Below are positions 19,893 to 37,048 of a stretch of 42,460 nucleotides of DNA, in pieces (position 1 is the first letter of the stretch; every line of letters begins with the position of its first letter). The translations under genes were made by a program, and so were the position numbers. The stretch lies in the IMG/VR virus record IMGVR_UViG_3300049381_000006, positions 1 through 42,460 of that record; one strand, given 5' to 3'. The notes beneath the pieces are model-generated. The model was not told the origin of the DNA and made no database searches. It was given only the letters and a program-made list of their open reading frames with translations. The DNA comes from a virus (lineage: Duplodnaviria; Caudoviricetes).

Positions 19893-21349
19893 CAGCTCCG
19901 CGTCTCAATCTCGACGAAGGCGCTGAGGGTGTCTCCGCTGTTGGCGGGGGTGATGGCCGACTGGAGCCAGGGGCGGCCGTCGACGCGCTGCAGGATCCGG
20001 TACGCGGTCTGGTCGTTCGCGAACCGGTAGTCCGTGGACTGGTCCATCGACATCATCTGGCGGTCGCCGATGAGGTAGTAGTCGAGGTCGGCGAAGACCA
20101 GGTCGCCGCGGGTGCCGAGCTGCGACGCCTTCTCGGTGATGACCAGGGGCCGTCCGAGGATCGTCATCGGGCCGGGGCCGGCGATGTTGAGGAGCATGAC
20201 GGGCGCACCACCGGTGCCGACGCTGACGGACAGCGTGTACAGCTGGACCAGGGTTTCCGGCGACGCGTACCACACGGCCCGGTTCAGCGACGCCGGGAAC
20301 ATCCGCGAGTACATGTTGATCACGTTCTCGGTGGTGATGGTGTTGGCGAGCTGCCCCGCGTCCTTCGTGATCGCGATGGCCGCGCTGTTGGCCGCGCCGA
20401 TGAACCCGAGCGGCTCACCGGCACCGGTGCCGGTCATGTAGGCGAGGTCCTCGAAGAACGCGAGCGCCTTCGGCCACAGGCCCTCGACGAGCGCAGTGAA
20501 CGACAGGAACGAGTCCTGGAGCAGCTCGTTGGGCACCAGCGCGAACCCGGTGAGCTTCTTGGCGTCGAGGACGGCGCGGCCGAACTTCGGCGACGACTCG
20601 GTGAACGCGGCGGATTCCTCGCCCCAGTAGGCGATCATGCCGCCGAACACGGAACCCGCGTTCGTCGTCGAGTCGATCATGGGGAACGGGACGCGCGGCG
20701 CCTCCATCGGCACCACCGTCGCCCGCGGGCGCACCACGCTCGTCTCCAGCGACAGCTGCAGCAGCTGCGACCGGAACACCTCCGGCACCAGGAACCCGCC
20801 CTCGGACGGCACGACGGAGCTCGTCGCGTTGCGGATCTGCGCGATCTTCTCCGTCGCGGCCTCGGACTGGTTGCGGTGCCACGTGGCCCGCACGAAGTCC
20901 TCGAAGCTGCCGAAGATGTTGTCGAGCGGGGCACCAGCGGCGCGCGGGTTGTGCCGGGTGGCCTGCCGGTGCGAGTTCGACATGCCCGTCGGGCGGTGCT
21001 GCGGGTCCAGGTTGAGACGCCGGATCGAGTCCTTGACGTCCTTCTGGTCGTTGTCGCGGAGCATCTGCGCGAGGCCCCGCTGGACGCCCTCGTCGATCTG
21101 ACGGGCCAGGTCCGTGTCCGGCGCCTGCTGCGCGGCGGCGTAGTTGACGACGAACTCGGTCAGCGCTTCGGGGCTGCCGACGATGTCCTTGGCCCGGGCC
21201 GGGTCCGCGATCATCTCCGCGAGCTCGGTGGCGTTCTTCGGGACCGGCAGGGCGACCCTGTTGTAGACGCGGCCGAACCGTGCCCGGTTGATACCGGAGC
21301 AGGCCAGCTTGTGCCGCAGCCCGGGGCTGAGGTGGATGGTGCCCTTCAC
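19892..21349 (-). CDS. HK97-fold major capsid protein with N-terminal scaffold (delta) domain
   Basis: EGGFLVPE, WGEE, KKLTG...ELLQDS, GTGAGEPLG, TILGRPL, RVDG motifs; GGAGG RBS with GTG 21349. Confidence 0.95.
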   Translation of the reverse strand: MKGTIHLSPGLRHKLACSGINRARFGRVYNRVALPVPKNATELAEMIADPARAKDIVGSPEALTEFVVNYAAAQQAPDTDLARQIDEGVQRGLAQMLRDNDQKDVKDSIRRLNLDPQHRPTGMSNSHRQATRHNPRAAGAPLDNIFGSFEDFVRATWHRNQSEAATEKIAQIRNATSSVVPSEGGFLVPEVFRSQLLQLSLETSVVRPRATVVPMEAPRVPFPMIDSTTNAGSVFGGMIAYWGEESAAFTESSPKFGRAVLDAKKLTGFALVPNELLQDSFLSFTALVEGLWPKALAFFEDLAYMTGTGAGEPLGFIGAANSAAIAITKDAGQLANTITTENVINMYSRMFPASLNRAVWYASPETLVQLYTLSVSVGTGGAPVMLLNIAGPGPMTILGRPLVITEKASQLGTRGDLVFADLDYYLIGDRQMMSMDQSTDYRFANDQTAYRILQRVDGRPWLQSAITPANSGDTLSAFVEIETRS

Positions 21350-24300
21350 TTGGTTGCCTCCTGGGCAGTGGGGTCGTCCGGGGTGGACGGCTCGGGGGTC
21401 GTGAGGCCGCTGACGAGGCTTCGCCACGGGTCGGCTGGTGTGGTGGTCCATGCGGGTGCCGCCCATGTGGCCGACGGCGCGGTGACGGGCGTGGTCGGTT
21501 CCGGGGCCGGTTCCGCATCAGGCGTGCCGGTGCCGGTATCCGGTGCTTCGCCAGCCAGTTCGGCATCGTGTTCGGCGACGGGTTCCGTATCTGCGGCTTC
21601 CGCCGGTGCCGTCTCGGCCACGTCTGCGGGCGTACCGTCGAGCTCCGGTCCGTCCGTCACCGCCACGGCCATTGCCACTGGCATGAGGACCGGGGTGGGT
21701 GCCCGGTCGCGGCCCGCGAACGCGAACACGGACAGGTCCCACGCTGATTTCACCGGCCGTGCCGGGGCGAGGACGTCGCCGCCGATGTCGTCGGCGAGCC
21801 CGAACTGAACGGCTTCGTCGGCGTTGAACCACGTCTCGGCCTTCATCAGCCCGCGCCACGTCTCGGCGTCGCCGCCGGCACGTTGGCTGTAGATGGCGGC
21901 GATGGTCGCGGAGGTGCGTTCGAGGAGGTCGGCTTGTTTGCGGAGCTGCTCGGCGTTGCCGTACGCGTCGGACCACGCTTCGTGGATCATCATCTGCGCG
22001 TAGCGCATGATCGTGATCCGGTCCCCGGCGCACGCGATGAACGACGCGGCGCTCGCCGCCATCCCGTCGATGGTGACGTTGATCGTGGCGTGGTGTTCGC
22101 GGAGCGCCCCGTAGATCGCGACGCCTTCGTGTACCTGCCCGCCGGGTGAGTTGATGTGCAGGTTGATCGTGGACGCTTTGACCTGGCGGAGTTCTTCGCA
22201 GAAGTCCGCCGCGGTGACACCGAAGTAACCAACCTCCCCGTACAGGTAGATGTCGGCGACGCCCGCCTTGTTCTCGATCCGGAACCATTTCCGTTTGGCT
22301 TGGACCCGCAGCCGGGTGCGTGCCGCGCGGGCTTCTGTTCTGGCGCCCACGGGACGGCCTCCTTTGTGGTTGATCGGCTCGGTGAACGCGCGGATCGGCA
22401 GCAACCGGCGCCTGTTGGCTGCGGGTCGCGTTTTCGCGGTCGTGTTGGACGGCCCGAGCGCGGGCTCACCGGGCGGCGCGGTCGGCTTGCCAGGGGCGGC
22501 CAGCGGGATGTCGACGGCGTCGCCTGCGAACGCGACCCGGATCCGGTCGAAGGTGACCGGGCCGAGCCGGGCCACGAGGTCCTTCAGCAGGGCGGGGTCG
22601 GCGGAGTACGCGACGCAGATATGCGGCTGCCACGGGGTGTGCTGCGGCGGGACGTCGAGTGCGATCCCGCCGTCATGCCACGCCTCGGACATCGTTTCCC
22701 GGTAGACCGCAAGGGTGTCCTGACCGGTGGGGCGTTCGTCTGCGGGGAGGTCTCCGACGCCGAGGACCCAGGCGGGCTTGTCGCTGTCGGCGTTCCACAG
22801 GTCCGCTCCGAACACCCGCGCCTCGACGGGCGGGAGCTCGCGCCGTTCGACCATCGACCGGACTGCGGTCACCAGTGCTGTGCGGGTCTCCGCGCTGATC
22901 GCTGCGGCGTCGCCGAGGTACCACAAGGTCAGATGCAGTTCGCCGACTGGTTCGCCGCCGTCCACGGCGAGACGTGCGGCATCGGCGTCGGTGGGGATCA
23001 GGGCGACCATCGCCCCAGTCGCAGTGTCGGCGGCGTTGTTGCGCGGGGGCGCCGTTCCGGGGTTGTTTTCGACCAGCGGCATCGCCTGTGCGGCGGCTGC
23101 CGCGAACGTGTCCTCTGCAACGCCAGCAGGCACGGCGTTCTCCGGTTCCGGCGATGCCTTCACGACCAGGTCATTGAGGTGCCGCAGGAACCTGGGCATG
23201 TCCGAGGCGCCGAGATCCGCCATAAGCGCCGGATACTCCTGGCTCAGACCCAACTCGTCGTTGTTTGGGAACGTCCACCCGACGGCATCTGCCGGACGTA
23301 CGGCGATTTCGAACCGCCAACCCGCCTCGCCGTCCTCCACGCCCCACATCTGGTAGGCCAGGTCGCCCCACTCACCGGCAGGGATCGTCCCCTCGCTGAT
23401 GATGTCGTCGATCTCCGAAGAGTGGCCGTTGAAGCCGCGCATCCGGTCATCCCACTCGGCCAACTCGGCGAGCCGAGCCGCTTGGGCGTCGTTGAGCGGG
23501 CCTTCGTCGCGCGCGTCCTCAAGGCGCTCCATCTCCGACCAGTGCTTCTTGATCTCCACGCGGCGGGCTTTGGCCACCACCCCTTCGGCCTCGAACGCGG
23601 CGCTGATCCGCTCGACATCGGCGGGACGGAGCTTGAGCGTTCCCCCAAGATTTGCGGCAGACCATTTCCGCTCGTCGTCGTGGTAGACGATGCCGAGCCT
23701 GACCTCAGGTCCCGTCTGCGTGGAGATCGCTGCACCGAGCGGTACGGTCTCGGAGTTGCCGTCGACGGGCAGCTTCCGGCTCGCGCGTAGCACTTCGCCG
23801 TCGCCGAGCTGAATCCGCTTCGCGAGCTTCAGCTTGTCGCCGGGGATACCGTCGGACCACTGCCCGTCGTCGTCGCGTTTCTGCCCGGGGTTGTACTTCC
23901 CGCGCGGCGCCCGCCTGGTACGACGAGCAGCCGTCGCCGACGGACCGGGCTCGTCGTCCCCGACCACCCACTCGATGCCGTCGTCGTCTTCGGCGGCGTC
24001 TTCGGCGGCGTTGGCCATCTCGAAGATCGCCTCAGCCAGTTCGTACGCCTGGTCCTGGCTCATGTCCGCCGCAGCGTCGGCGAGGTCGCCGTTCTCGTCG
24101 ACTTCGTGGATGCCGACGTTGCCCGCGCCGTCCACGGCGACGGCCCACCCGTTGCCGAGGTCGCTGTAGTCGTATACGTCGGCGTCGGCGTCGGCGGGAA
24201 CGTCTACGGTGGCGGCCCACCTCAGTTCGTGCGCGACGCGGCGCATGTCTGCCGGGTCGTCGAACTCGACGAGCACCTCGTGCTTGTCGATGCCGTCGTC

Positions 24301-24537
24301 CTCTTCGTTGTGGTCGACGACGAGGTGTGCGCTGCCGTCTTCGAACACGCGGACGCTGACCATGCCGATCTCGTCGCTGCCCGTGCGGTCGTCGTAGACG
24401 TCGCCGTACGCCGACTGGTAGAAGTCGGCGTCGAAGATCCCGCCATCGGGGGTTTCGGCGAAGCGGCCTCTGCCGTCGCGGATGTAGCGGCGGCTGACGA
24501 CGACCGGTGCGGGCGCGTGGAGGAGGGTGGCGGTCAT
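21346..24537 (-). CDS. Multidomain protein: two unknown acidic domains + 2H phosphoesterase + ClpP-type prohead protease
   Basis: ClpP motifs INSPGG, DGMAASAAS, MMIHEA, ETWFNADEAVQFGLAD (about 21770-22290); 2H motifs HLTL and HICV (about 22500-23020); ATG overlaps the portal stop. Confidence 0.9.
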   Translation of the reverse strand: MTATLLHAPAPVVVSRRYIRDGRGRFAETPDGGIFDADFYQSAYGDVYDDRTGSDEIGMVSVRVFEDGSAHLVVDHNEEDDGIDKHEVLVEFDDPADMRRVAHELRWAATVDVPADADADVYDYSDLGNGWAVAVDGAGNVGIHEVDENGDLADAAADMSQDQAYELAEAIFEMANAAEDAAEDDDGIEWVVGDDEPGPSATAARRTRRAPRGKYNPGQKRDDDGQWSDGIPGDKLKLAKRIQLGDGEVLRASRKLPVDGNSETVPLGAAISTQTGPEVRLGIVYHDDERKWSAANLGGTLKLRPADVERISAAFEAEGVVAKARRVEIKKHWSEMERLEDARDEGPLNDAQAARLAELAEWDDRMRGFNGHSSEIDDIISEGTIPAGEWGDLAYQMWGVEDGEAGWRFEIAVRPADAVGWTFPNNDELGLSQEYPALMADLGASDMPRFLRHLNDLVVKASPEPENAVPAGVAEDTFAAAAAQAMPLVENNPGTAPPRNNAADTATGAMVALIPTDADAARLAVDGGEPVGELHLTLWYLGDAAAISAETRTALVTAVRSMVERRELPPVEARVFGADLWNADSDKPAWVLGVGDLPADERPTGQDTLAVYRETMSEAWHDGGIALDVPPQHTPWQPHICVAYSADPALLKDLVARLGPVTFDRIRVAFAGDAVDIPLAAPGKPTAPPGEPALGPSNTTAKTRPAANRRRLLPIRAFTEPINHKGGRPVGARTEARAARTRLRVQAKRKWFRIENKAGVADIYLYGEVGYFGVTAADFCEELRQVKASTINLHINSPGGQVHEGVAIYGALREHHATINVTIDGMAASAASFIACAGDRITIMRYAQMMIHEAWSDAYGNAEQLRKQADLLERTSATIAAIYSQRAGGDAETWRGLMKAETWFNADEAVQFGLADDIGGDVLAPARPVKSAWDLSVFAFAGRDRAPTPVLMPVAMAVAVTDGPELDGTPADVAETAPAEAADTEPVAEHDAELAGEAPDTGTGTPDAEPAPEPTTPVTAPSATWAAPAWTTTPADPWRSLVSGLTTPEPSTPDDPTAQEATK

Positions 24538-26582
24538 GTGCCCGCCGCCGGGTTCCAGGTGGCGGTCACGGTTCCGCGGCAGCGCCACCGGCCGAGGCAC
24601 AGGTGGTAGGGGCCGCCTGCGTATGCCTGCCATGCGTCTAGCCAGGTGTCGAACACGGTGCCGTGGATCTTCCGACAATTGACACAGGTAAATTTGTCGA
24701 GGACTTCCGTCGCCGTGTAGATCGTCTGTGGGACGTCGCGGACCGTCTCCAGCCGGCCAATGTTCTGCGCCCGGGTCAGCGCCGCACCGAGCTGCTCCCG
24801 CAGATGCGCAGGCGACAGCCCGTCGAGGTGCTTACGGACATCCGCCGTCACCTGCTCGGCGGGGACACCGGGCGCGTACACGCGTAGCGCTTCCCTGCCT
24901 GCGGACTGCGCCAGTCCGTCACCGAGAAGCCTCGCGACCACCTCAGCGACCGGCACCATGTCCGGCGGGGTGTCCGGGACGGGGATCGTCCGGCCCTGGG
25001 CGGCGGCCTCGCGGGCCATCTGCCTCGCGGCGGTCATGCCCATGTCCACCATCGCGGCGGTGAGCACCGCGACTGCGGCGGTTGTGGTGACGGTCAGCGC
25101 GGCGAGTGCGGCCACGGTGCCCGCCGCGATCGCTGCGGTGATCTGGGCGAGGAGTTCGGCCTGCTGTGCGGCGGTGATCCCCGCCCACACCAGGAGGAGC
25201 GCGGCGAGCGCGGCCTCCCAGTCGGCCTGCACCTGCTGGAGTTCCTCGTCGACTGGTGGGGGTTCGCCGGGGTCGGCGGGTGCGGCGTTGAGCCACGACA
25301 GGGCCGCGAGCGTCGACTGCGGCTTCGGGGCGGGGTTCTTCAGCCCTCCGCTCGGCGGTGCCGCCGGCGGGGTGGGTGGTTCGGGTTTCTTCCACACCAT
25401 GCCCTCGGGCAGGCCCAGCGGTTTGATCAGCGAATTGCCGTCAACACCGGCCTGCACGTAGGACACGAACGCGGACGCCTTCGACGTGCGCTCCCGGTCA
25501 CGTGCTGCGGCGTCCGGCGGCACCGGGTCGTCGTGGTCCCACTCCAAACCCTCACCGGTCGGCCCGTAGAGGGGCAGGAGCTGGAAGTTCAGCATGTCCT
25601 TGAGCCGGTCCAGGCGCGGCACCGTCACGTATTCCGCGAACATGACCTTGCCGCTCTCGGCGATGGCCCGGTTCGCGCCCTCCGTCAAACCGAGCATCGT
25701 CTTGGAGACACCGAACGCGACGAACAGTTTGTCGTCGCCGATCCGGGCCAACTCGACGAACTGCATGTCCCGCATGGAGTACTTGCGGTCGACCCACTTC
25801 ATCTTGTTTTCCAAGATGGCGACCCGGTGCGCGTTGTCGATGCCCTGGTGCGCTTCGGCCCACCTGTCTCGGAACTCGTTGAACTCGTCGTCGGACAGGC
25901 GCTCTTCGACCTCGATGATCCCGCCCGGCTCGGCACCGTTGGTGAAGAAGTTCCGGTTCCACTCCTCCGCGTACCTTTGCGCGTCCAAGGTGCGCATCGA
26001 CGCCTGCACGGGTCCGAGGCCGCGGTACGGGTTGTCGGGGTCGGGGCGGCGCATCGGGATCACGTCGTCGATCTCGAGCGGGATCTCCTCCCCGTCGGGG
26101 GAGGTGTAGATGTAGCCGATCAGGTATTCGGTCGGGGACACGACGGGACGCATCCGGTGCGGCGGCACAGGCCACAGCTCAAGCGGGATCTTGAACCGTT
26201 TGTTGCGGGCGACGACGATCCAGCCCTCACCGGTGAGGTCGAGGTGCTGCTGCTCGGTTTCGATGAAAAGTCTCTGGGTGAAGAACTTGTTGGGCCGGTT
26301 CCACAGGTCGAGGCACGCGTGTTCGGTGACTTCGACCCGGTCTTCTTTCAGCCCGGATTTCGCTTTGCGGTACAGGTGCCAGCCGACCGCAGCTGTTGCG
26401 GTCGAGGTTCGGTCGACGATGCCGAACAGGGTTCCGTTGCTGCCGTATGCCCGGAGTTGCGCCTGCTGGCCGCGTGGTGCCGCGTAGTGTCGGCCCCCGC
26501 CGACGGCGGCAGACCGCGATACGAGCGGGACAGGCGACGCGTTCCGGACAGCGGCGGCGAGTGTCGAGATCAAGTCCCTCAC
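24534..26582 (-). CDS. HK97-family portal protein fused to a MuF-like head morphogenesis domain
   Basis: RPN, YRGLGPV, FFTNGAEPGG, AFGV portal motifs; C-terminal A.N.GR...LD..TC..C...C.GR.RCRG MuF-like motif; GTG overlaps the upstream TGA. Confidence 0.92.
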   Translation of the reverse strand: MRDLISTLAAAVRNASPVPLVSRSAAVGGGRHYAAPRGQQAQLRAYGSNGTLFGIVDRTSTATAAVGWHLYRKAKSGLKEDRVEVTEHACLDLWNRPNKFFTQRLFIETEQQHLDLTGEGWIVVARNKRFKIPLELWPVPPHRMRPVVSPTEYLIGYIYTSPDGEEIPLEIDDVIPMRRPDPDNPYRGLGPVQASMRTLDAQRYAEEWNRNFFTNGAEPGGIIEVEERLSDDEFNEFRDRWAEAHQGIDNAHRVAILENKMKWVDRKYSMRDMQFVELARIGDDKLFVAFGVSKTMLGLTEGANRAIAESGKVMFAEYVTVPRLDRLKDMLNFQLLPLYGPTGEGLEWDHDDPVPPDAAARDRERTSKASAFVSYVQAGVDGNSLIKPLGLPEGMVWKKPEPPTPPAAPPSGGLKNPAPKPQSTLAALSWLNAAPADPGEPPPVDEELQQVQADWEAALAALLLVWAGITAAQQAELLAQITAAIAAGTVAALAALTVTTTAAVAVLTAAMVDMGMTAARQMAREAAAQGRTIPVPDTPPDMVPVAEVVARLLGDGLAQSAGREALRVYAPGVPAEQVTADVRKHLDGLSPAHLREQLGAALTRAQNIGRLETVRDVPQTIYTATEVLDKFTCVNCRKIHGTVFDTWLDAWQAYAGGPYHLCLGRWRCRGTVTATWNPAAGT

Positions 26583-27186: not shown

Positions 27187-28662
27187 TTAGGTCGAACGGA
27201 TCTGCGGTCGCCCCTTCGCGAGCAGGCGGTGAAGCGCTTGGCTCATCGCATCAACTTGATCATCGTTCGCGCCGTTCGGAAAGCTCGCTGTTTCCTCTAC
27301 AAAGGCGCCGACCCACGGCGCTAGCGCCGCAGCCGGTAGGACGACGTTCCCGGCCTCGACGTACACGGCGATTGCCGACGCGCGGGCTTCCTTCGAGTCC
27401 TTCGGCGTGTACGCGATGACGCCCGGGACCTTCTTCCGGAGCTGCGAGATGATCGCCGGACCGTTGGCTTTGTCCTCGATCACCTTCGCGCGGGCCTGCG
27501 GCCACTTCGCCGCCAACTGCTCCAGCTTCGTACAGGTGACGGTGAAGTCCATCCGGTCGCGGACCTGGTCCAGCAGCCACGCGTTCACCCCGTTGGACGC
27601 CCACGCCTGCATGACGACGAAGTCGGAGTCCTTCGTGTCCTTGAACGCGGCATCGACGTGGATCTCGATGGTGACGGCGCCAGGGACGAACATCGTGCCG
27701 TCATCGCGTTGGACCGCTCGCGGGGTGTCGTAGTACTGCCACCAGTCCCGTTCGAAGATGCCGCCGCCGTCAGGGCTGGGCCGGCCTTGATAGAGAGCGT
27801 TCCACGCCCGCGGCCCTGCCGTCTTTTTGCGGTCCACCCACTCGTCGTGGGTTCGGCCGCGGGCGGACACCATGAACTCGCCGGGCTGGCGGCCGAGGAT
27901 GTCGAAGCCGAGGCAGCCGTCTTTGCCCGCGCATTTACACTCGGCGCCTTTTGCGGGATCGTGTTCGGCTTCGGCGGGGATGTTGATGAAGCGCCACTTG
28001 CCGGGGGCGTCTTCAACTAGCCGCCCGACGAGGTCTGCTTCGTGCCATCGGGTCATGATGACGACGACGATCGCACCGGGACCGAGGCGTGCGGAGCCGA
28101 CTTCTGTCCACCAGTCCCAGCAGCGTTTCCGGTACTTCTCCGAGTCGGCTTCCTGCCGGTCTTTGAGCGGATCATCTATCAGGAGCACGTCTACGGGACG
28201 TCCGGCTAGTCCGGAGCCGATACCGGCGGCGATCATGCCGCCGTCGAAGCCCTCCAGGCGCCACTCGCCGCCGGCACGGGTGTCCCGGCGTACGGCGATG
28301 CCCAGGTCCGGGTTTGATTCGATGTCGTTGCGGACGAGTTTGGCTGAGGTTAGCGCCAGGTCCTGCGCGTAGGAGACGACGGCGATGCGGAGGTGCGGGT
28401 TGCGTTGCAGCAGCCATGCTGGGAACGTTCGGGAGACGCGGGACGTTTTCCCTTCCTGTGGCGCGCAGGTGATGATCAGCCATGGCGAGACGCCGTTGAC
28501 AGCATCCACGAGCGCAGCGTCGATGATGTCCAACGCCGGGGTTTGGACTGTCCGCGCGTCCACGTACTTCGCCAACGCGCCGGGTGTCGCGAGCGTCAGC
28601 TTCTTCTTGTTCTGCTCCTCGCCGAGCCTGTCCCGGACCAGCCCGAGAACACGCGTGTTCAC
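27187..28662 (-). CDS. terL: Terminase large subunit
   Basis: Walker A APQEGKT, Walker B LLIDDP, TRWHEADL, LYQGRP, nuclease VDAAF, IEDKANG, FPNGANDDQVDA. Confidence 0.95.
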   Translation of the reverse strand: MNTRVLGLVRDRLGEEQNKKKLTLATPGALAKYVDARTVQTPALDIIDAALVDAVNGVSPWLIITCAPQEGKTSRVSRTFPAWLLQRNPHLRIAVVSYAQDLALTSAKLVRNDIESNPDLGIAVRRDTRAGGEWRLEGFDGGMIAAGIGSGLAGRPVDVLLIDDPLKDRQEADSEKYRKRCWDWWTEVGSARLGPGAIVVVIMTRWHEADLVGRLVEDAPGKWRFINIPAEAEHDPAKGAECKCAGKDGCLGFDILGRQPGEFMVSARGRTHDEWVDRKKTAGPRAWNALYQGRPSPDGGGIFERDWWQYYDTPRAVQRDDGTMFVPGAVTIEIHVDAAFKDTKDSDFVVMQAWASNGVNAWLLDQVRDRMDFTVTCTKLEQLAAKWPQARAKVIEDKANGPAIISQLRKKVPGVIAYTPKDSKEARASAIAVYVEAGNVVLPAAALAPWVGAFVEETASFPNGANDDQVDAMSQALHRLLAKGRPQIRST

Positions 28663-28879: not shown

Positions 28880-29215
28880 CTAACCCCGCCTCGCAGACCA
28901 CGCCTGTGTCGGGCGCAGGTGAAGGGTCATCGTGTCGCCGTCCATTCCGGTGATCTCGTAGATGACCGGGTGGTCGTATACGTCGTTGCCGACGTGTAGC
29001 CCGCTACCCGCATATCCGAGGTGGAGGCGCCGCATGTCGGCGAGCGTCATCGTCGTCCGCTGGGGCGCGATGATGACCCTTCCTTGGTTTCCGTGGGGCG
29101 GTTTCGTCCAGGTGATGCCACCTATGGTCAGGGTCAGGTGTGCGGGCGGAGGTTCGGGTCGGGGCTCGAACACCAGCCGGTTCCACAGGTCGACGATGCG
29201 GGTCAGGGGGGTCAT
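28880..29215 (-). CDS. Hypothetical protein
   Basis: ATGA coupling with the upstream gene. Confidence 0.65.
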   Translation of the reverse strand: MTPLTRIVDLWNRLVFEPRPEPPPAHLTLTIGGITWTKPPHGNQGRVIIAPQRTTMTLADMRRLHLGYAGSGLHVGNDVYDHPVIYEITGMDGDTMTLHLRPTQAWSARRG

Positions 29216-29853
29216 GCGGATGGCCCTGCGGCGAGCTCGTCAAGGGCGGCCAGGATCAGCTTGTCGCCGAGGTCGGTGTCGCATTCTTCGCAGTAACCGT
29301 CCTCGTCGCGGACGTACCGGATGTGCCCGGCATCGCCGAGCGCGGCGTACACCTCGTACCGCCAACTGCTGCTGCCGAAGGGGCGTTTGCCGCTGAACTC
29401 GCCGTCTGTCCAGGCGCCGCGTGCGAGGGCGGCGAGGTATTCGCGGATGGTGGTGGCGTCGGCGTCGTTTTCGCCCATCGGGGTGGCGAGGATCTGCGCG
29501 GGGGTGGGCGCGGTCGAGGTAGATGCCGTCCTCTCAGAGATCACCACCGTGACGTTTCTCGGGTTGAGAGGGGTTTCCTCGCCGGTGAGGGGGTTGCGGT
29601 AAACGTAGCCAGTTCCATAGGCGTGCGCAGTGCGTATCAGTAGACGTCGATGCAGAACGGAGAGACCATCGAGTGCGGCGAGTTCGTTGATCCGGGCAAG
29701 CAGAGCAACCAGGACGGGTCGCTGGTGGCAGTAGCCGTGCGGGTCTTCCTTGTAGGACCACTCCTTGACGGCTTCCTCGGCTGCCGACCGGGCGGTGTCG
29801 TAGTTCAGGGCGTATCTCGTTTCCGCCTGCCCGGCCGTGAAGTGGGCACTCAT
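29212..29853 (-). CDS. Mosaic hypothetical protein with a portal-like internal segment
   Basis: ATGA coupling; C-terminal NDADATTIREYL...FSGKRPFG domain; internal YGTGYVY...PLNPRNVTV. Confidence 0.7.
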   Translation of the reverse strand: MSAHFTAGQAETRYALNYDTARSAAEEAVKEWSYKEDPHGYCHQRPVLVALLARINELAALDGLSVLHRRLLIRTAHAYGTGYVYRNPLTGEETPLNPRNVTVVISERTASTSTAPTPAQILATPMGENDADATTIREYLAALARGAWTDGEFSGKRPFGSSSWRYEVYAALGDAGHIRYVRDEDGYCEECDTDLGDKLILAALDELAAGPSA

Positions 29854-30215
29854 CGGGGCTCCAGTCTGGGCTTGTCCGCTGTTTCGTCGATGACGACTGG
29901 CACGCCGAACAGCGTCGGCGTGCGCCCGCCCCGGTAGATGCCGTTCCGCTGGTGGCGTTGGTGCAGCCACCGCGCGAACGCCCGATGCTCGCTGGACATC
30001 ACCGCCCGGTACTCGCCTGCGGGTCGTTCGGCGACTTGGGCGATGAACGCGCGCATCATCGTCTCGAACTCCTGCTCGGCACGCATCCGGGCGATGGCGT
30101 CGCGGGCTTCGTCGTCGGTCACGATGTGCCCGTCTCCGATCATCGCGTCGTCGAGGCGCTGCATGTAGCCGCGCGTCAGCTCCAGTTGGATCGTGGTGGC
30201 GAAGTCGTTGCTCAT
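29850..30215 (-). CDS. Hypothetical protein ending in an HK97 capsid A-domain-like segment
   Basis: AVMSS...NGIY...PTLFGVPVVIDET. Confidence 0.7.
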   Translation of the reverse strand: MSNDFATTIQLELTRGYMQRLDDAMIGDGHIVTDDEARDAIARMRAEQEFETMMRAFIAQVAERPAGEYRAVMSSEHRAFARWLHQRHQRNGIYRGGRTPTLFGVPVVIDETADKPRLEPR

Positions 30216-30850
30216 GCCGTGCCGTCCGGGTCGTCGCGTAGCCAGTTCTTGCCTTTGTCGGTCAGGAACGCGCGCCGTAATGCGACCCCGAAGTTGAGCA
30301 GCCCTCGATCAAGGTCGCGGTTGTAGGCGGCAAGCACGACTTTCGCGGGGAACCGCCGACATAGGTGCTCCCACGCGTAGGTGTCGTGTTCTTTGATGTG
30401 TTGGAGCAGCATGCGGGTGGTGACGTCGGATCGTTTCCACCTGCGGTGGAGGGGTTCGAGCCTCGGGACGGACACCGTTTCGTCGATCTTGATGGGGAGC
30501 GCGAAGATCTGGGCCAGGTTGCCAAACGCAGGCGGAGAGGACATCACCTCTCGGACCGCGTCAGCGAGACGGACCGCGTCCAGGTGCTTCGACGACATGA
30601 CGATCTTCATCGGCTCAGCCCTCGGCAGATCCCGGAACCTCGCCAACGTCTCCCGGATGGTCGCCGGTGGTGGCGGCGGCGGCGGCACGGCGAAGGCGTA
30701 CGCGCCCTCCTCCTGCCGCTCCGGCGGCCCCAAAATCCGCCTCATCGCGGCGGATATGGCGTCCGACGGTGTCCACAGGAACACGTCGACCATGCGCCGC
30801 TCCAGCCCGGCGATGCGCGTGAAGTCCTCGGACCGCAGCATGCCGCTCAC
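30212..30850 (-). CDS. Hypothetical protein: capsid A-domain-like segment plus C-terminal winged-helix-like domain
   Basis: IVMSSKH...QIFALPIKIDET..PRLEP; C-terminal RGLL.FG....FLTDKG. Confidence 0.7.
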   Translation of the reverse strand: MSGMLRSEDFTRIAGLERRMVDVFLWTPSDAISAAMRRILGPPERQEEGAYAFAVPPPPPPPATIRETLARFRDLPRAEPMKIVMSSKHLDAVRLADAVREVMSSPPAFGNLAQIFALPIKIDETVSVPRLEPLHRRWKRSDVTTRMLLQHIKEHDTYAWEHLCRRFPAKVVLAAYNRDLDRGLLNFGVALRRAFLTDKGKNWLRDDPDGTA

Positions 30851-31922: not shown

Positions 31923-32107
31923 CGGTCGGCCCTCCAGGTTTTGACCGCGATGGGGCCGAGGTGCCAGTTCCAGCCTTCGGTCGCGTGGTTGTACTGGGCG
32001 CCGATGAGCCAGGTGCGACGGAATGCGCCGAGCACGAACTGGCGGGAGCCGATCCGGAATCGGCAGTCGGCGCGGAGCCAGCGGCGGAACCGGGCGAGGC
32101 CGGTCAC
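31919..32107 (-). CDS. Small Trp/Arg-rich hypothetical protein
   Basis: Coupled overlaps at both ends. Confidence 0.55.
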   Translation of the reverse strand: MTGLARFRRWLRADCRFRIGSRQFVLGAFRRTWLIGAQYNHATEGWNWHLGPIAVKTWRADR

Positions 32108-32358
32108 GGCGCTTCCGCCCGTGTGGGGTGGTCGTCCCCGTCGTCGGCCTGTGTCGTCTCCGTGCAGGCTGCCGTGAAGGCGCGCATCTTGGGCACCCAC
32201 TCATCGGCGAGACGGGTCAGTCGTTCAGGGACGCCGTCCAGCAGGACGCCGGACACGGTGACGTCGGCGTCATGGAACTCCAAACCTTCACCGGCGGCAC
32301 CGTATAGCGGCAGGAACTGGTGGTTTAGCAGGTCGAACCAGTCCGTGGCGTCGGGCAT
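32104..32358 (-). CDS. Small protein containing a near-copy of a portal segment
   Basis: DLLNHQFLPLYGAAGEGLE vs portal DMLNFQLLPLYGPTGEGLE (14/19 identical); start could alternatively be 32391. Confidence 0.7.
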   Translation of the reverse strand: MPDATDWFDLLNHQFLPLYGAAGEGLEFHDADVTVSGVLLDGVPERLTRLADEWVPKMRAFTAACTETTQADDGDDHPTRAEAP

Positions 32359-32366
32359 GTTATCGG

Positions 32367-32609
32367 TCACGACGACTGCCTTTTGTGCCATGTCCGCAGG
32401 TCGGTGAGCCCGATCCACAGCAGGACCTTGTTGAGGTTGTGCACGTCGGGCAGGCGCCCACGGCCGAGGTTCGTGTACACGTGCGTGGAGTGGAGGTCGG
32501 CTTGTTCGGCGGCTTTGCGCCAGGAGATGCGTAGGCCGCGTCGTTTCTGGTCGGCGGCGTGGTAGATCGCTTCGGGGTCGAGCGTTGGTGGGCGGGTTGT
32601 GGTTGCCAC
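32367..32609 (-). CDS. HTH (XRE-like) DNA-binding protein
   Basis: RR...ISWRKAAEQADL....TNLGRGRLPDV...LLWIG. Confidence 0.75.
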   Translation of the reverse strand: MATTTRPPTLDPEAIYHAADQKRRGLRISWRKAAEQADLHSTHVYTNLGRGRLPDVHNLNKVLLWIGLTDLRTWHKRQSS

Positions 32610-32716: not shown

Positions 32717-33016
32717 TTACGGTGCGTGCAAGTGCGACACCATCGTTAGATGAACACCGATATCCGCCACGCCGCTCGCGAGCACCCGACCAGCGGCATC
32801 AACAACCTGCCACGCACCCGGCTTCAGCGGGTAGACGCGGTGAACGGGGATGCCGAACAGCGTCGGGTTGAGCAGCCGTTTTCCCTCCGCGATCGGGTCG
32901 AGCACGTCGGGGCTGCCCTCGAACCGCATGCCCCACGGCGGGTCGTACTGGTGTTGGGCTGCGATCCGGCTGACCGGTTCCAGGATCAGCAGCCCGATCT
33001 CGGCGCGCTCGCTCAT
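32717..33016 (-). CDS. Small protein resembling the HK97 capsid A-domain
   Basis: RFEGSPDVL...PTLFGIPVHRVYPLKPGAWQVVD. Confidence 0.65.
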   Translation of the reverse strand: MSERAEIGLLILEPVSRIAAQHQYDPPWGMRFEGSPDVLDPIAEGKRLLNPTLFGIPVHRVYPLKPGAWQVVDAAGRVLASGVADIGVHLTMVSHLHAP

Positions 33017-33264
33017 GCCGCCCACTCGTCTTCCGCGCGCAGTTCGTGACGCTTGGTCAGCTCGGCGAGCGCGTGCAGCGCCTCGTCGACGAGGCGCCCC
33101 AACGCCGCGACCGCTTCTTCGTGCGTGACGCCGGTGTAGTCATCGCCAGCGACCTTCCACCGGTCGCATTGGTGGGGGAGGCTGACCTGCCATAGGTCGG
33201 CGGGGTTGTCGAACTCGTCGTCGGTTTGCTTGACCCGGAATCCGAACGGCTCGCGGTCGCTCAT
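33013..33264 (-). CDS. Hypothetical protein
   Basis: GGAGG RBS, ATGA coupling. Confidence 0.7.
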   Translation of the reverse strand: MSDREPFGFRVKQTDDEFDNPADLWQVSLPHQCDRWKVAGDDYTGVTHEEAVAALGRLVDEALHALAELTKRHELRAEDEWAA

Positions 33265-34269: not shown

Positions 34270-34655
34270 GTCGCGTCGCTTCCGTCGTTGATGAGCCCGT
34301 CGTGCCTCGCAACCGCCGCATAGCGGCCGGCCTCCGGCATGGCGTTGAGCAGCGCCGCCAGCTCGTCACAGATCTGCCGCGTGCTCCGTCCGAGCCCTTC
34401 GGTGACCGCCGGCGCTTCGGGTGGCAGGCCCGCGATCGGCCGACCCTCGAAGTAGGGCGCGTCCAAGTCGGCGTCCGACCATCCGTTGTAGTACGGCTCA
34501 ATCACGCCGTTGAGGTTGTAGTCGTCGATCACGGCGTGCAGCGGCCCGCCCGTCGGGTGGATGGCGTACAACTCACCGATCAGCTCGACTGCCCGTTTGA
34601 CCTGCTCGTTCCAGGTGGTCGGCGAGCCCGCGTTCTCCCAGCACTCAACGCACAT
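34266..34655 (-). CDS. Hypothetical phage protein
   Basis: MCVECW...GGPLHAVIDDYNL motif. Confidence 0.7.
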   Translation of the reverse strand: MCVECWENAGSPTTWNEQVKRAVELIGELYAIHPTGGPLHAVIDDYNLNGVIEPYYNGWSDADLDAPYFEGRPIAGLPPEAPAVTEGLGRSTRQICDELAALLNAMPEAGRYAAVARHDGLINDGSDAT

Positions 34656-35091
34656 CGGTCGCCCATTCCTCTTGCCGGCCCGGATGCGCCCGGTAGACGC
34701 CCGTGATGTCCCGGACGTCCGCGCAGGGCCACGCCTGGCCGTGGCAGCGGTTGCAGACCAGCGTGCCCCAGTGTGGCGCCTCGCAGGTGCGACACCCGCC
34801 CATCGCGTGCGGGCTATGCCGGGCGATGATCGCCCGCTTCGCCCCGACCTCCGCCAGCACCCGAGCCGGGTCGTGGCGTGCGATGTGCTCGACCAAGCCC
34901 GGTGCGAACTCTCGGCCCTCGTGCGGGTAGGCGAGGCACCACCCGTTGCGAGTACCGAGCGCGTGCGCGTCTCGAACGATCCATTCGCCGGTCCACGGCG
35001 GGCTGTTGTCATCCACGGCCCGCGCGGTCGCCTCGTCCTCGGCCAGCCGCACGGTGAGAAATTCGACGATCTCCATATTCTCGCCGCTCAC
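34645..35091 (-). CDS. DUF6221-like protein
   Basis: IVEFL..RLAEDE..A...HIARHDPARVLAEV.AKR.II...WPC...VY..HPG.QEEW. Confidence 0.8.
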   Translation of the reverse strand: MSGENMEIVEFLTVRLAEDEATARAVDDNSPPWTGEWIVRDAHALGTRNGWCLAYPHEGREFAPGLVEHIARHDPARVLAEVGAKRAIIARHSPHAMGGCRTCEAPHWGTLVCNRCHGQAWPCADVRDITGVYRAHPGRQEEWATDVR

Positions 35092-35471
35092 AGTTCGATT
35101 CCGTATCCGTCGGACAGCAAGAGCAGTGTCGGGCACGGGTACGCCGACTCAGCGTAGAGGTGGCTCCCCTCCAGGCACGTCTGGCAGATCGGGTCGCCCG
35201 CGACCGCGACATACGGGGCGTGCAGGTCGAGGATCTTCCGGTGCGCGGCGACCATCCGCAGCGTCCGGACGGGGCAGGTTGCCACGATGTGCGCGGCCGT
35301 CGCCCGGGTCTGGTTCGAGCTCAGCGCGAACGCGTCGGCGACCGTCACACCGTCGACCGCGATAACCTCGTCTTGCTCCGGGTTCGCCGACCACGGTCCG
35401 GGGCTCGCGGCGAGCGCTATCCGCTCCGCCTCGTCGATCGCCTCACGCAGTCTCGTGATCAAGTCGCTCAT
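35088..35471 (-). CDS. DUF6221-like protein
   Basis: RLREAIDEAERIA.AA.PGPW...AAHIV...P.R.LR.VAAHRKIL.LH...C.TC...YPCPTL. Confidence 0.75.
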   Translation of the reverse strand: MSDLITRLREAIDEAERIALAASPGPWSANPEQDEVIAVDGVTVADAFALSSNQTRATAAHIVATCPVRTLRMVAAHRKILDLHAPYVAVAGDPICQTCLEGSHLYAESAYPCPTLLLLSDGYGIEL

Positions 35472-35959
35472 TCGCTGGTCACTCCATAGGCCTCGATCAT
35501 CAGTTGGAACACGTCGGCCATCAGCCACGCCCTCGCCTCAGCCTCAGCGTTCTCGTACTGTTTACCGACCACCTGCCCGCACATGTCCACGAGCTTCCGG
35601 TCGACCGCGCACCGCCGCAGGACCTTCGCCGGGTCATGCCTGACGATGTGGACCGCCGCAGCAGCCTTCACCTCCTCGGCGCTGCCGCCAGGGAACGACG
35701 GCAGCCCTCGGACATCCCAGCTCAACTGGTACCGCTCCTCGCTGCGCAGGGACACCCCGACGGAACCGCACACCGGGCACTCCACGAACTCGTCGACGAC
35801 CGGATCGGGCTCGATCACGGTGTCGCACTCGCAACACTCCCAGCGCCAGTGCTCACCCGTCGGAGTGCCCGGTTCGCTCGTCTGCGATGCGGCAACCGCC
35901 CACGCCGCAGTCTCGTCGATCGCCGCCCGAAGCCGGTCGATGCGCCTCATCTCGCTCAC
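35468..35959 (-). CDS. DUF6221-like protein with inserted zinc ribbon
   Basis: RLRAAIDE...CCEC...CPVCGS...HIVRHDPAKVLRRC..DRK. Confidence 0.75.
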   Translation of the reverse strand: MSEMRRIDRLRAAIDETAAWAVAASQTSEPGTPTGEHWRWECCECDTVIEPDPVVDEFVECPVCGSVGVSLRSEERYQLSWDVRGLPSFPGGSAEEVKAAAAVHIVRHDPAKVLRRCAVDRKLVDMCGQVVGKQYENAEAEARAWLMADVFQLMIEAYGVTSE

Positions 35960-36213
35960 CACGGGTGCACCTCCACGGTCATCTTCGCCTTGTCGAACGC
36001 CGAACCCAACACGGGCGGTTGCAGGTCGCGCCACGCCTTCGCCAGCAACGGCCGGACGACCGCCCGCATGCTCGCGCCGTCGATCCGGTCCTCCCGGGTG
36101 AGCCGACACCTGTTGATCATGATCTCCGGGTGCGTCTCGAAGTCGAGCAGAACCAACCCGAACGGGTCATCCTTGAGCCGCTCCCGAAGCCGCTCAAGCT
36201 CCACCCCGTTCAT
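35956..36213 (-). CDS. Hypothetical protein
   Basis: ATGA/GTGA coupling on both sides. Confidence 0.6.
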   Translation of the reverse strand: MNGVELERLRERLKDDPFGLVLLDFETHPEIMINRCRLTREDRIDGASMRAVVRPLLAKAWRDLQPPVLGSAFDKAKMTVEVHPW

Positions 36214-36608
36214 ACCGGGTTGACCCATCCCGTGAGCAGCGGAACCGCACCCGGGCTGCCGTGGACCGGGCAACCCGCCGAACTGCCGGGCAGGTAAACC
36301 CTCTTGCCGGCCGCGAGCTCGGCCATCGACGTCACCTCCAACATTGGGCAGGTGCAGCCGTCGCTTTCCCCAGGTCTGACGGGTCCCGTGGGCTGTGACC
36401 CGCCTGACGGGTTGACGCACACGCTGCCGTCGGCATGGGTCATCGTCGCCAGGTTGATCGCCGCGTCGCTGGCGCACAGGGCTCGCATGCACCGCACGCA
36501 GCTGAGTGTCGTCCACCGGCCGCAGCCGTCGCCCTGGCACGGCTTCTTCAGGCTGGGTGCGGATCTGACCGGTCGTGTGTGCCAGGCCTCGTCGCGTGGG
36601 TGGCTCAT
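36210..36608 (-). CDS. Cys-rich hypothetical protein
   Basis: Multiple Cys clusters (C...C, CVRC, CTCP, CPVH); AAGGAG RBS. Confidence 0.65.
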   Translation of the reverse strand: MSHPRDEAWHTRPVRSAPSLKKPCQGDGCGRWTTLSCVRCMRALCASDAAINLATMTHADGSVCVNPSGGSQPTGPVRPGESDGCTCPMLEVTSMAELAAGKRVYLPGSSAGCPVHGSPGAVPLLTGWVNPV

Positions 36609-37048
36609 GTCTGGGTCTCCTTGCCGGTGACGGGGTCGATGACGTCGATCAGGTATGCGGTGTTGCCCTGGTACACCCGCTCCCACGCGGCCTTGAACGC
36701 GGCGAACTCCTCGGCGGTGAGCGGTTCGGTGGTGGAGATGAGCCCGGTGGGGTTGGGCTGCCAACTCATGCCGCAGGCGCAGTCGTGCGAGGTGTGTTTG
36801 GTGGCCCGGTGGGTGCACCGGTGCTCGTGCTTGCCGGGTGCGAAGAAGTCCACCGGCGGGAAGGTCTCCTCGCACGGGCCGGGGTCGTGGTGGGTGAGCC
36901 ACCTGTGGACGGGAATCCAGATCGCGACGGCAGCGAGAGCGAGGATCGCGGCGTGGAGCCCGTTGGGTTCGCCGAGGATTTCGGCAGGAGTGTAGAGCGC
37001 GGCGTAGATCCCAAGCGTGCCAATGAACCAGCCCAGCATGGACTTCAC
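36605..37048 (-). CDS. Two-TM protein with a Cys/His finger and a C-terminal portal-clip-like segment
   Basis: Two N-terminal TMs; H.C.H...H..H.C.C; PTGLISTTEPLTAEEFAAFKAAWERVYQG; GGAGG RBS. Confidence 0.7.
   Translation of the reverse strand: MKSMLGWFIGTLGIYAALYTPAEILGEPNGLHAAILALAAVAIWIPVHRWLTHHDPGPCEETFPPVDFFAPGKHEHRCTHRATKHTSHDCACGMSWQPNPTGLISTTEPLTAEEFAAFKAAWERVYQGNTAYLIDVIDPVTGKETQT

Follow-up and report, generated by a model that had tools for sequence, protein, structure and literature searches.

A portal-clip module reused in a mosaic membrane-hairpin gene of an uncultured soil actinophage

A 147-residue protein encoded by an uncultured soil actinophage carries, behind a hairpin of predicted membrane helices and a His/Cys-rich finger, a strand and helix that sequence comparison confirms to be homologous to the clip of HK97-type portal proteins. 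The protein is a mosaic, the clip recurs on unrelated carriers in the records of related phages, and a fragment of another portal region lies elsewhere in the same genome. As judged from these alignments, the clip is a repeatedly reused portal module with a putative function. The explanation we favour, to which we give a probability of somewhat more than one in three (about 0.37), is that the clip copy acts as a decoy that would bind a portal-sensing defence protein of the host without activating it.

The window, by which we mean the whole stretch of DNA analysed here, is a record of 42,460 bases with 68% G+C, 81% complete according to the tool's estimate. Its host would be an actinomycete; the nearest cultured-phage relative of its portal is that of Streptomyces phage Dagobah (48%), and comparable portal clips are found in records from Streptomyces, Frankia and Micromonosporaceae among the best 120 of 2695 matches. 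Most genes are on the minus strand, where a replication set (DnaC-like ATPase, methyltransferase, exonuclease) is followed by the gene for the 147-residue protein, three DUF6221 genes, and then terminase, portal, protease, capsid and tail genes (Table 1). The DUF6221 genes are tandem paralogs lying directly downstream at 34645–36109(−). With a GTG start preceded by GGAGG 9 nt upstream, a 4-nt overlap with each neighbour and a third-position GC content of 0.89 (0.86 in the portal), the 147-codon frame looks like a real gene. Contigs of one DNA sequencing run, possibly the source sample, span it without differences, and no RNA sequencing runs are listed as containing it. It is a small accessory gene outside the structural module, patchily distributed among relatives, and no homolog of the whole gene is present in the 43 other records.

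Table 1. Positions of the mosaic gene, the portal, the terminase and the portal fragments in the window.
Feature	Coordinates	Strand	Basis
Mosaic accessory gene (helix hairpin, His/Cys finger, portal-clip copy)	36605–37048	−	Ribosome-binding site, overlaps, codon bias; family searches
Two predicted membrane helices, residues 5–25 and 30–52	36893–37036	−	AlphaFold, hydropathy, alignments; in 10/10 family members
His/Cys-rich finger, residues 53–96	36761–36892	−	phrog_32051 resemblance, alignments; in 4/10 family members
Portal-clip copy, first strand and helix (core 36665–36751), with weaker match to next loop and strand	36635–36751	−	BLAST, shuffles, profiles
HK97-type portal gene (PF04860) with long C-terminal extension	24534–26582	−	PF04860 match
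Portal's own clip segment (strand and helix of the model)	25809–25928	−	Alignment, AlphaFold model
Terminase large subunit, the partner first proposed for the clip copy	27187–28659	−	Family profile matches
Second portal-fragment gene, about 88 residues (core 32275–32334)	32104–32370	−	Profile scan, alignment
Portal segment matched by the second fragment	25539–25598	−	Alignment, model

Among 43 portal-related records, one of which has a 74% identical portal, none contains a homolog of the terminase at E < 1e-8, and the terminase module appears from these comparisons to have been swapped relative to those records. The C-terminal extension of the portal (24534–25400, −), which is common to many related portals, gives a weak MuF-like match (PF04233, E 0.35). 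A very long open frame of 1110 residues (21346–24678, −) ends in a ClpP-like head protease; its large N-terminal part is unassigned and contains two His-containing motifs that we presume to recall 2H phosphoesterases. Three small genes at 29850–30850 and 32717–33025 (−) share similar short end motifs of capsid-like appearance by eye, and capsid profiles did not detect them. On the opposite strand, a 441-residue gene (50–1375, +) combines a kinase-like P-loop region (a weak NCBIfam match) with a probable phosphatase half.

Residues 100–128 of the 147-residue protein align without gaps to residues 228–256 of the portal encoded by the same phage, 11 of the 29 being identical. We reproduce this alignment as reported in the first-pass annotation of the sequence, which also had the match running on beyond these 29 residues; it does so, but more weakly and with one gap. 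BLAST places the protein against its own portal at E 6e-5. Shuffling, named in advance as the check on this alignment, leaves it significant: its score was reached by 1 of 5000 shuffles of the whole protein, by none of 5000 shuffles of the last 50 residues, and by none of 150 shuffled queries run against the window in six-frame translation. The profile built from 118 portal clips, itself free of copies (although the portals had been gathered with a profile that contained copies), scores the protein at 15.0 bits, above 1000 of 1000 shuffles, and a relative, P0004, at 28 bits over 40 residues (0/1000 shuffles). In the reverse direction, a profile of five C-termini from the family ranks the portal first among 776 six-frame segments (E 4.4e-5, with the runner-up at 0.35), and in blind PHROG scans three relatives (P0004, P0013 and P0010) lead to portal families at E 0.025–0.18. 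The agreement of profile, shuffles and PHROG matches establishes that the homology is real.

Library searches with the 147-residue protein itself are less telling. It has no portal family match in Pfam, PHROGs or NCBIfam, and falls below the PF04860 cut-off, over which the true portal is the sole match in the window; no curated family in Pfam, PHROGs, NCBIfam or PADLOC matches it as a whole. Its low-confidence structural model gave no matches at E ≤ 0.001 against viral structures, and the ESM Atlas returned no usable match for the whole protein; for the C-terminus of a relative, all scores were under 0.9, with three portal-family clusters among those listed. One pattern scan recovered four portals and two unrelated matches, another a single copy already known, and a profile search for longer proteins gave only portals among the best 120 of 2695 matches. 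In the AlphaFold model of the portal, the matched segment is a strand (230–233) and a helix (240–252) flanked by two long helices, at pLDDT 40–66. It agrees with the clip as defined in the available text of PMC4493910 (T4) and PMC12847820 (YonE); no residue boundaries of the clip were found in print for the HK97-type portal family of this phage.

Three protein searches and one exhaustive search, from which two long repetitive proteins (P0007 and P0011) were dropped before counting, yielded nine relatives and hence a family of 10. All 10 members share the hairpin; six carry the clip copy (five of the nine relatives), four do not, and six are without the finger. The hairpin stands alone in P0009, P0012 and P0014, precedes another tail in P0008, is joined to the clip in P0006 and P0010, and to both finger and clip in P0003, P0004, P0005 and P0013. 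The finger is similar to phrog_32051, a small family of free-standing proteins (E 0.39 for the window protein, 5.7e-4 for P0004), and the C-terminus of P0013 is a stretch of about 20 residues from the window's next gene downstream (36210–36608, −). The hairpin-only, finger-bearing and clip-less members, together with the phrog_32051 resemblance and the end of P0013, indicate that the 147-residue protein is a three-part mosaic in which the clip is an exchangeable module. The family is rare, nine of its 10 proteins having one or two contigs; scans of viral, metagenome and cultured-phage sequences found no DNA of the relatives, and a genome scan found one relative among 15 candidate stretches. 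This free swapping of modules, the borrowed end of P0013 and the rarity of the family would suit recycling, in which a piece of the portal, acquired on one or a few occasions, spreads by recombination among small mosaic genes as a stable helix, any function being in the hairpin or unrelated to portal recognition. We regard recycling of this kind as possible, if on the unlikely side.

The protein had been described at the outset as two transmembrane helices and a His/Cys finger, of which the second helix and the presence of the finger hold; the first helix is marginal, and the finger is poorly modelled (pLDDT under 50). AlphaFold places the helices at residues 2–22 and 27–49 of a 144-residue form, with pLDDT about 80. 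By hydropathy, helix 2 is clearly hydrophobic (19-residue mean 1.83) and helix 1 weak (1.2), and the latter may be signal-like. Topology was judged from hydropathy and charge bias. The inter-helix loop has no K or R and two D/E, with K or R at both ends, a signal that is weak family-wide; two unrelated anchored copies have four and six K/R just after the helix and none before it. From this placement of charges, a bias that is weak but in the expected direction, the clip of the 147-residue protein would probably lie on the cytoplasmic side.

Related phages were gathered through their portals. Of the 96 records searched, 44 (2.1 Mb) underwent a complete scan at the highest sensitivity; longer records predominate among these, four short ones were added on hints, and frequencies are biased upward. 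Outside the window, eight non-portal genes in 7 of 43 records carry a clip-like piece, five of them firm and three borderline, in a tally based on a profile of the copies and on shuffles. With the portal-only profile, non-portal copies exceed the best reversed decoy (8.9 bits) in five records including this phage. Four firm copies (G001, G003, G009, G011) lie above this reversed maximum, and the fifth (G006a) scores 14.9 bits with the family profile (0/1000 shuffles); the borderline ones are G006tm, G047 and G052. No copy at all was found in 36 of the 44 records. Left out of the count were the weak second matches G001:14335, G028 and G056, and also L300 (12.0 against 9.6 bits); a further candidate, G006c, was rejected when 127 of 1000 shuffles reached its score.

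The carriers of these copies are diverse. They include soluble mini-proteins of 64–75 residues that are mostly clip-like strand-helix-strand (L043 and L045, at G006 23064 and G001 50547), tags at the C-terminus of unrelated proteins, and two membrane proteins with a single helix, unrelated to the hairpin (L013, 5979–6422, −; and L152, in G006 near 46080, −, the latter borderline). The copies lie 1–38 kb from their portal on either strand, four of them on the opposite strand, and the clip helix is the smallest unit that they share. Membrane tethering, which the first-pass annotation had made central, does not follow the clip: four of the 10 family members have the helices without it, six of the eight other clip-bearing genes have no hydrophobic helix, and anchors are not enriched among them (2/8 versus 219/1642 likely small genes, or 13%; p 0.29). 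The tether is incidental. The same survey weighs against simple recycling. When 12 portal windows were scanned, those covering the clip gave three to four gene-like copies each, whereas equally conserved windows elsewhere gave one strong match, described below; the copies moreover persist in frames that are intact and codon-biased (GC3 0.68–0.97), and their carriers number at least nine.

That one match lies in this same phage and is another portal fragment, carried by a gene absent from the first-pass annotation. Its core is a copy of portal residues 338–357, which comprise the last part of the long wing helix plus the strand after it, with 14 of 20 residues and 46 of 60 nucleotides identical, and five synonymous and six non-synonymous codon differences. 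It scores 26.1 bits against a reversed maximum of 11.3 (0/3000 shuffles); its nearest portal of 108 is the phage's own, and the gene's other matches in the 44 records are portals only. The phage thus has two separate portal fragments, of which the wing copy looks recent and the clip copy old. A third portal-like stretch, in ORF 29212–29853, was rejected, its score being reached by 64 of 3000 shuffles. No copies of capsid, protease, tube, neck or tail genes in the window rose convincingly above reversed controls, and this absence of capsid, protease and tail copies is again not what recycling would lead one to expect; terminase fragments in the window were checked by BLAST only.

These results also bear on convergence, in which a common type of capped amphipathic helix would have come to look like the clip by accident. 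In its favour, the pattern is short, the window protein alone has no portal family match in the three libraries, and the scores of three outside copies are at the edge of noise. Chance would, however, have to produce the P0004 score against portal-only clips, the additional match of the strand preceding the helix and of the loop following it, and the bases that the wing copy shares with the portal, while 963 kb around relatives of the terminase gave nothing above the reversed control with the copy profile. We consider convergence highly improbable overall; for the hairpin family it is largely refuted, and it may account for the three borderline copies.

The pattern of residues retained in the copies is informative about possible partners. 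Across 14 copies, the more conserved a column is in portals, the more often it tends to be retained (Spearman 0.68, p 3e-4, 24 columns). Among the profile columns, L22 (10/14), E26 (9/14), W34 (12/14), R33 (7/14) and H38 (5/10) are kept, whereas D24 (5/14 kept), E29 (4/14) and E36 (1/14) are mostly lost, even though they are 98–100% invariant in portals. The window copy keeps E26 and W34, has A at D24 and E29, V at E36 and Y at H38, and so does not carry the subfamily's invariant acidic and His/Gly residues of the clip; its identity is 11/30 to its own portal versus 10/30 to the median portal. The copies thus seem to keep the strand-helix shape more than the specific surface of the portal subfamily, which argues against a faithful imitation meant for terminase, adaptor or ring neighbours. 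This pattern is as consistent with simple structural retention as with a sensor of broad range. L, S/T-x-x-E and W, the residues that survive best, also make up a generic helix cap and amphipathic face, so their conservation may be structural only; kept structural residues and lost surface acids are likewise what a recycled helix would display.

The loss of acidic residues weakens the earlier suggestion that the clip sequesters terminase, and with it the broader possibility that the copy interferes with assembly or packaging by binding terminase, the head-tail adaptor or a portal subunit, thereby delaying the phage's own packaging or poisoning that of a competitor. Precedent for such binding exists: in the available text of PMC4493910, a 24-residue clip peptide of T4 binds terminase and inhibits packaging, and strands of adjacent subunits form the clip sheet, while the text of PMC7296036 has the RcGTA adaptor hooking onto the clip helix. 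Four copies also lie at most 4.3 kb from their portal. Nevertheless, the copies have mostly lost the residues that are invariant in 118 related portals and are likely to contact partners, the sequence of the copy does not follow that of its own portal, and an inhibitor in a lytic operon would presumably also hit the phage's own motor. Modelling the clip copy in complex with the nuclease domain of terminase (score 0.00, mark 0.32) speaks neither for nor against such binding. We hold interference to be unlikely.

We prefer the decoy on four grounds: the homology, the recurrence of the clip, the retention that follows portal conservation, and the identity of the clip helix with the element that SpbK recognises. 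According to the available text of PMC12847820 and PMC11984713, the target of SpbK on the SPbeta portal is the clip helix, in which an escape mutation (A291P) falls, and clustering on the 12-mer activates the sensor; Avs4 reads the portal stem, clip and wing. A lone clip helix made early would occupy a sensor of this kind and leave it inactive. The gene lies among replication genes, 11 kb upstream of the portal on the same strand, and its product would be made before the portal. The clip copy, facing the cytoplasm, would then bind a portal sensor of the host, probably its likeliest partner, and the sensor would stay inactive on a single copy that offers neither the 12-fold ring nor the stem and wing surfaces needed by known sensors. 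The mechanism would not lie in the membrane anchor, which would be just one of several carriers. Against the decoy stand the loss of most portal-invariant surface residues, the 38% identity that is barely above that of the median portal, and the number of copy-free records and clip-less family members. RelA/SpoT is not a candidate target, as the clip is dispensable for the binding of the T7 portal to RelA/SpoT in the available text of PMC13483052.

The combination of a two-helix module with a conserved phage epitope invites an opposite interpretation. Such a fusion matches the sensor-effector architecture of defence proteins, and the clip could be an integrated bait that lures the terminase of a superinfecting phage, whereupon the hairpin damages the membrane in a prophage-encoded abortive infection. 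We think this very unlikely, given that the gene sits within the run from replication to packaging on the lytic strand, that none of six proteins matched PADLOC defence models at E ≤ 1, and that clip-less hairpins and hairpin-less clips both occur.

The decoy can be extended to actinophages more generally. A mobile cassette of about 30 residues carrying a portal epitope, placed on many carriers including three unrelated membrane anchors, might soak up portal-sensing immunity, and the clip and wing fragments of this phage would then map the surfaces that an actinomycete sensor reads; we put this forward as a doubtful generalization. Bacteria read portals as signs of infection, and constraint on these proteins leaves them little freedom to mutate. 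If the decoy is correct, copying the sensed surface and nothing else would be a form of counter-defence for which the literature, as far as its accessible text goes, gave us no description; the copied pieces would then indicate the epitopes and could be used as baits for portal sensors of actinomycetes. Copies that block assembly instead would be natural packaging inhibitors, and copies that are only recycled helices would document phage mini-genes built from pieces of essential genes.

Compared with known systems, the copy is homologous to the first strand and helix of the HK97-type portal clip (PF04860; RcGTA, PDB 6TE8/6TBA), portal P0002 matching that of RcGTA at E 7e-19 across the region. 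It comprises about 30–40 of roughly 350 core residues, fused to helices and finger, and cannot form a portal, as it has no stem, wing or crown. In SpbK–YonE (Bacillus subtilis ICEBs1/SPbeta) and EcAvs4, the clip is an immune epitope, to which Avs4 adds stem and wing (available text of PMC12847820 and PMC11984713); these are, however, sensors in other hosts, where the known counter-defence protein Nip binds SpbK, and neither "mimic" nor "decoy" occurs in the paper concerned. The T4 gp20 peptide 288–311 is, like the copy, a detached part of the clip, which binds terminase and stops packaging (available text of PMC4493910), but it is a laboratory peptide from another portal family and not a gene. 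The EVADES anti-defence mimics (10.1101/2025.06.06.658234) are similarly small accessory imitators, but they imitate DNA; 12 of 23 matching passages of the catalogue mention no copy of a phage's own virion protein, its tables could bear on novelty, and the accessible literature yielded no description of phage genes that copy a portal piece. New relative to these systems are the family of hairpin carriers with a clip that comes and goes, the recurrence of the clip on unrelated carriers in actinophages with HK97-type portals, and the wing copy in the same genome.
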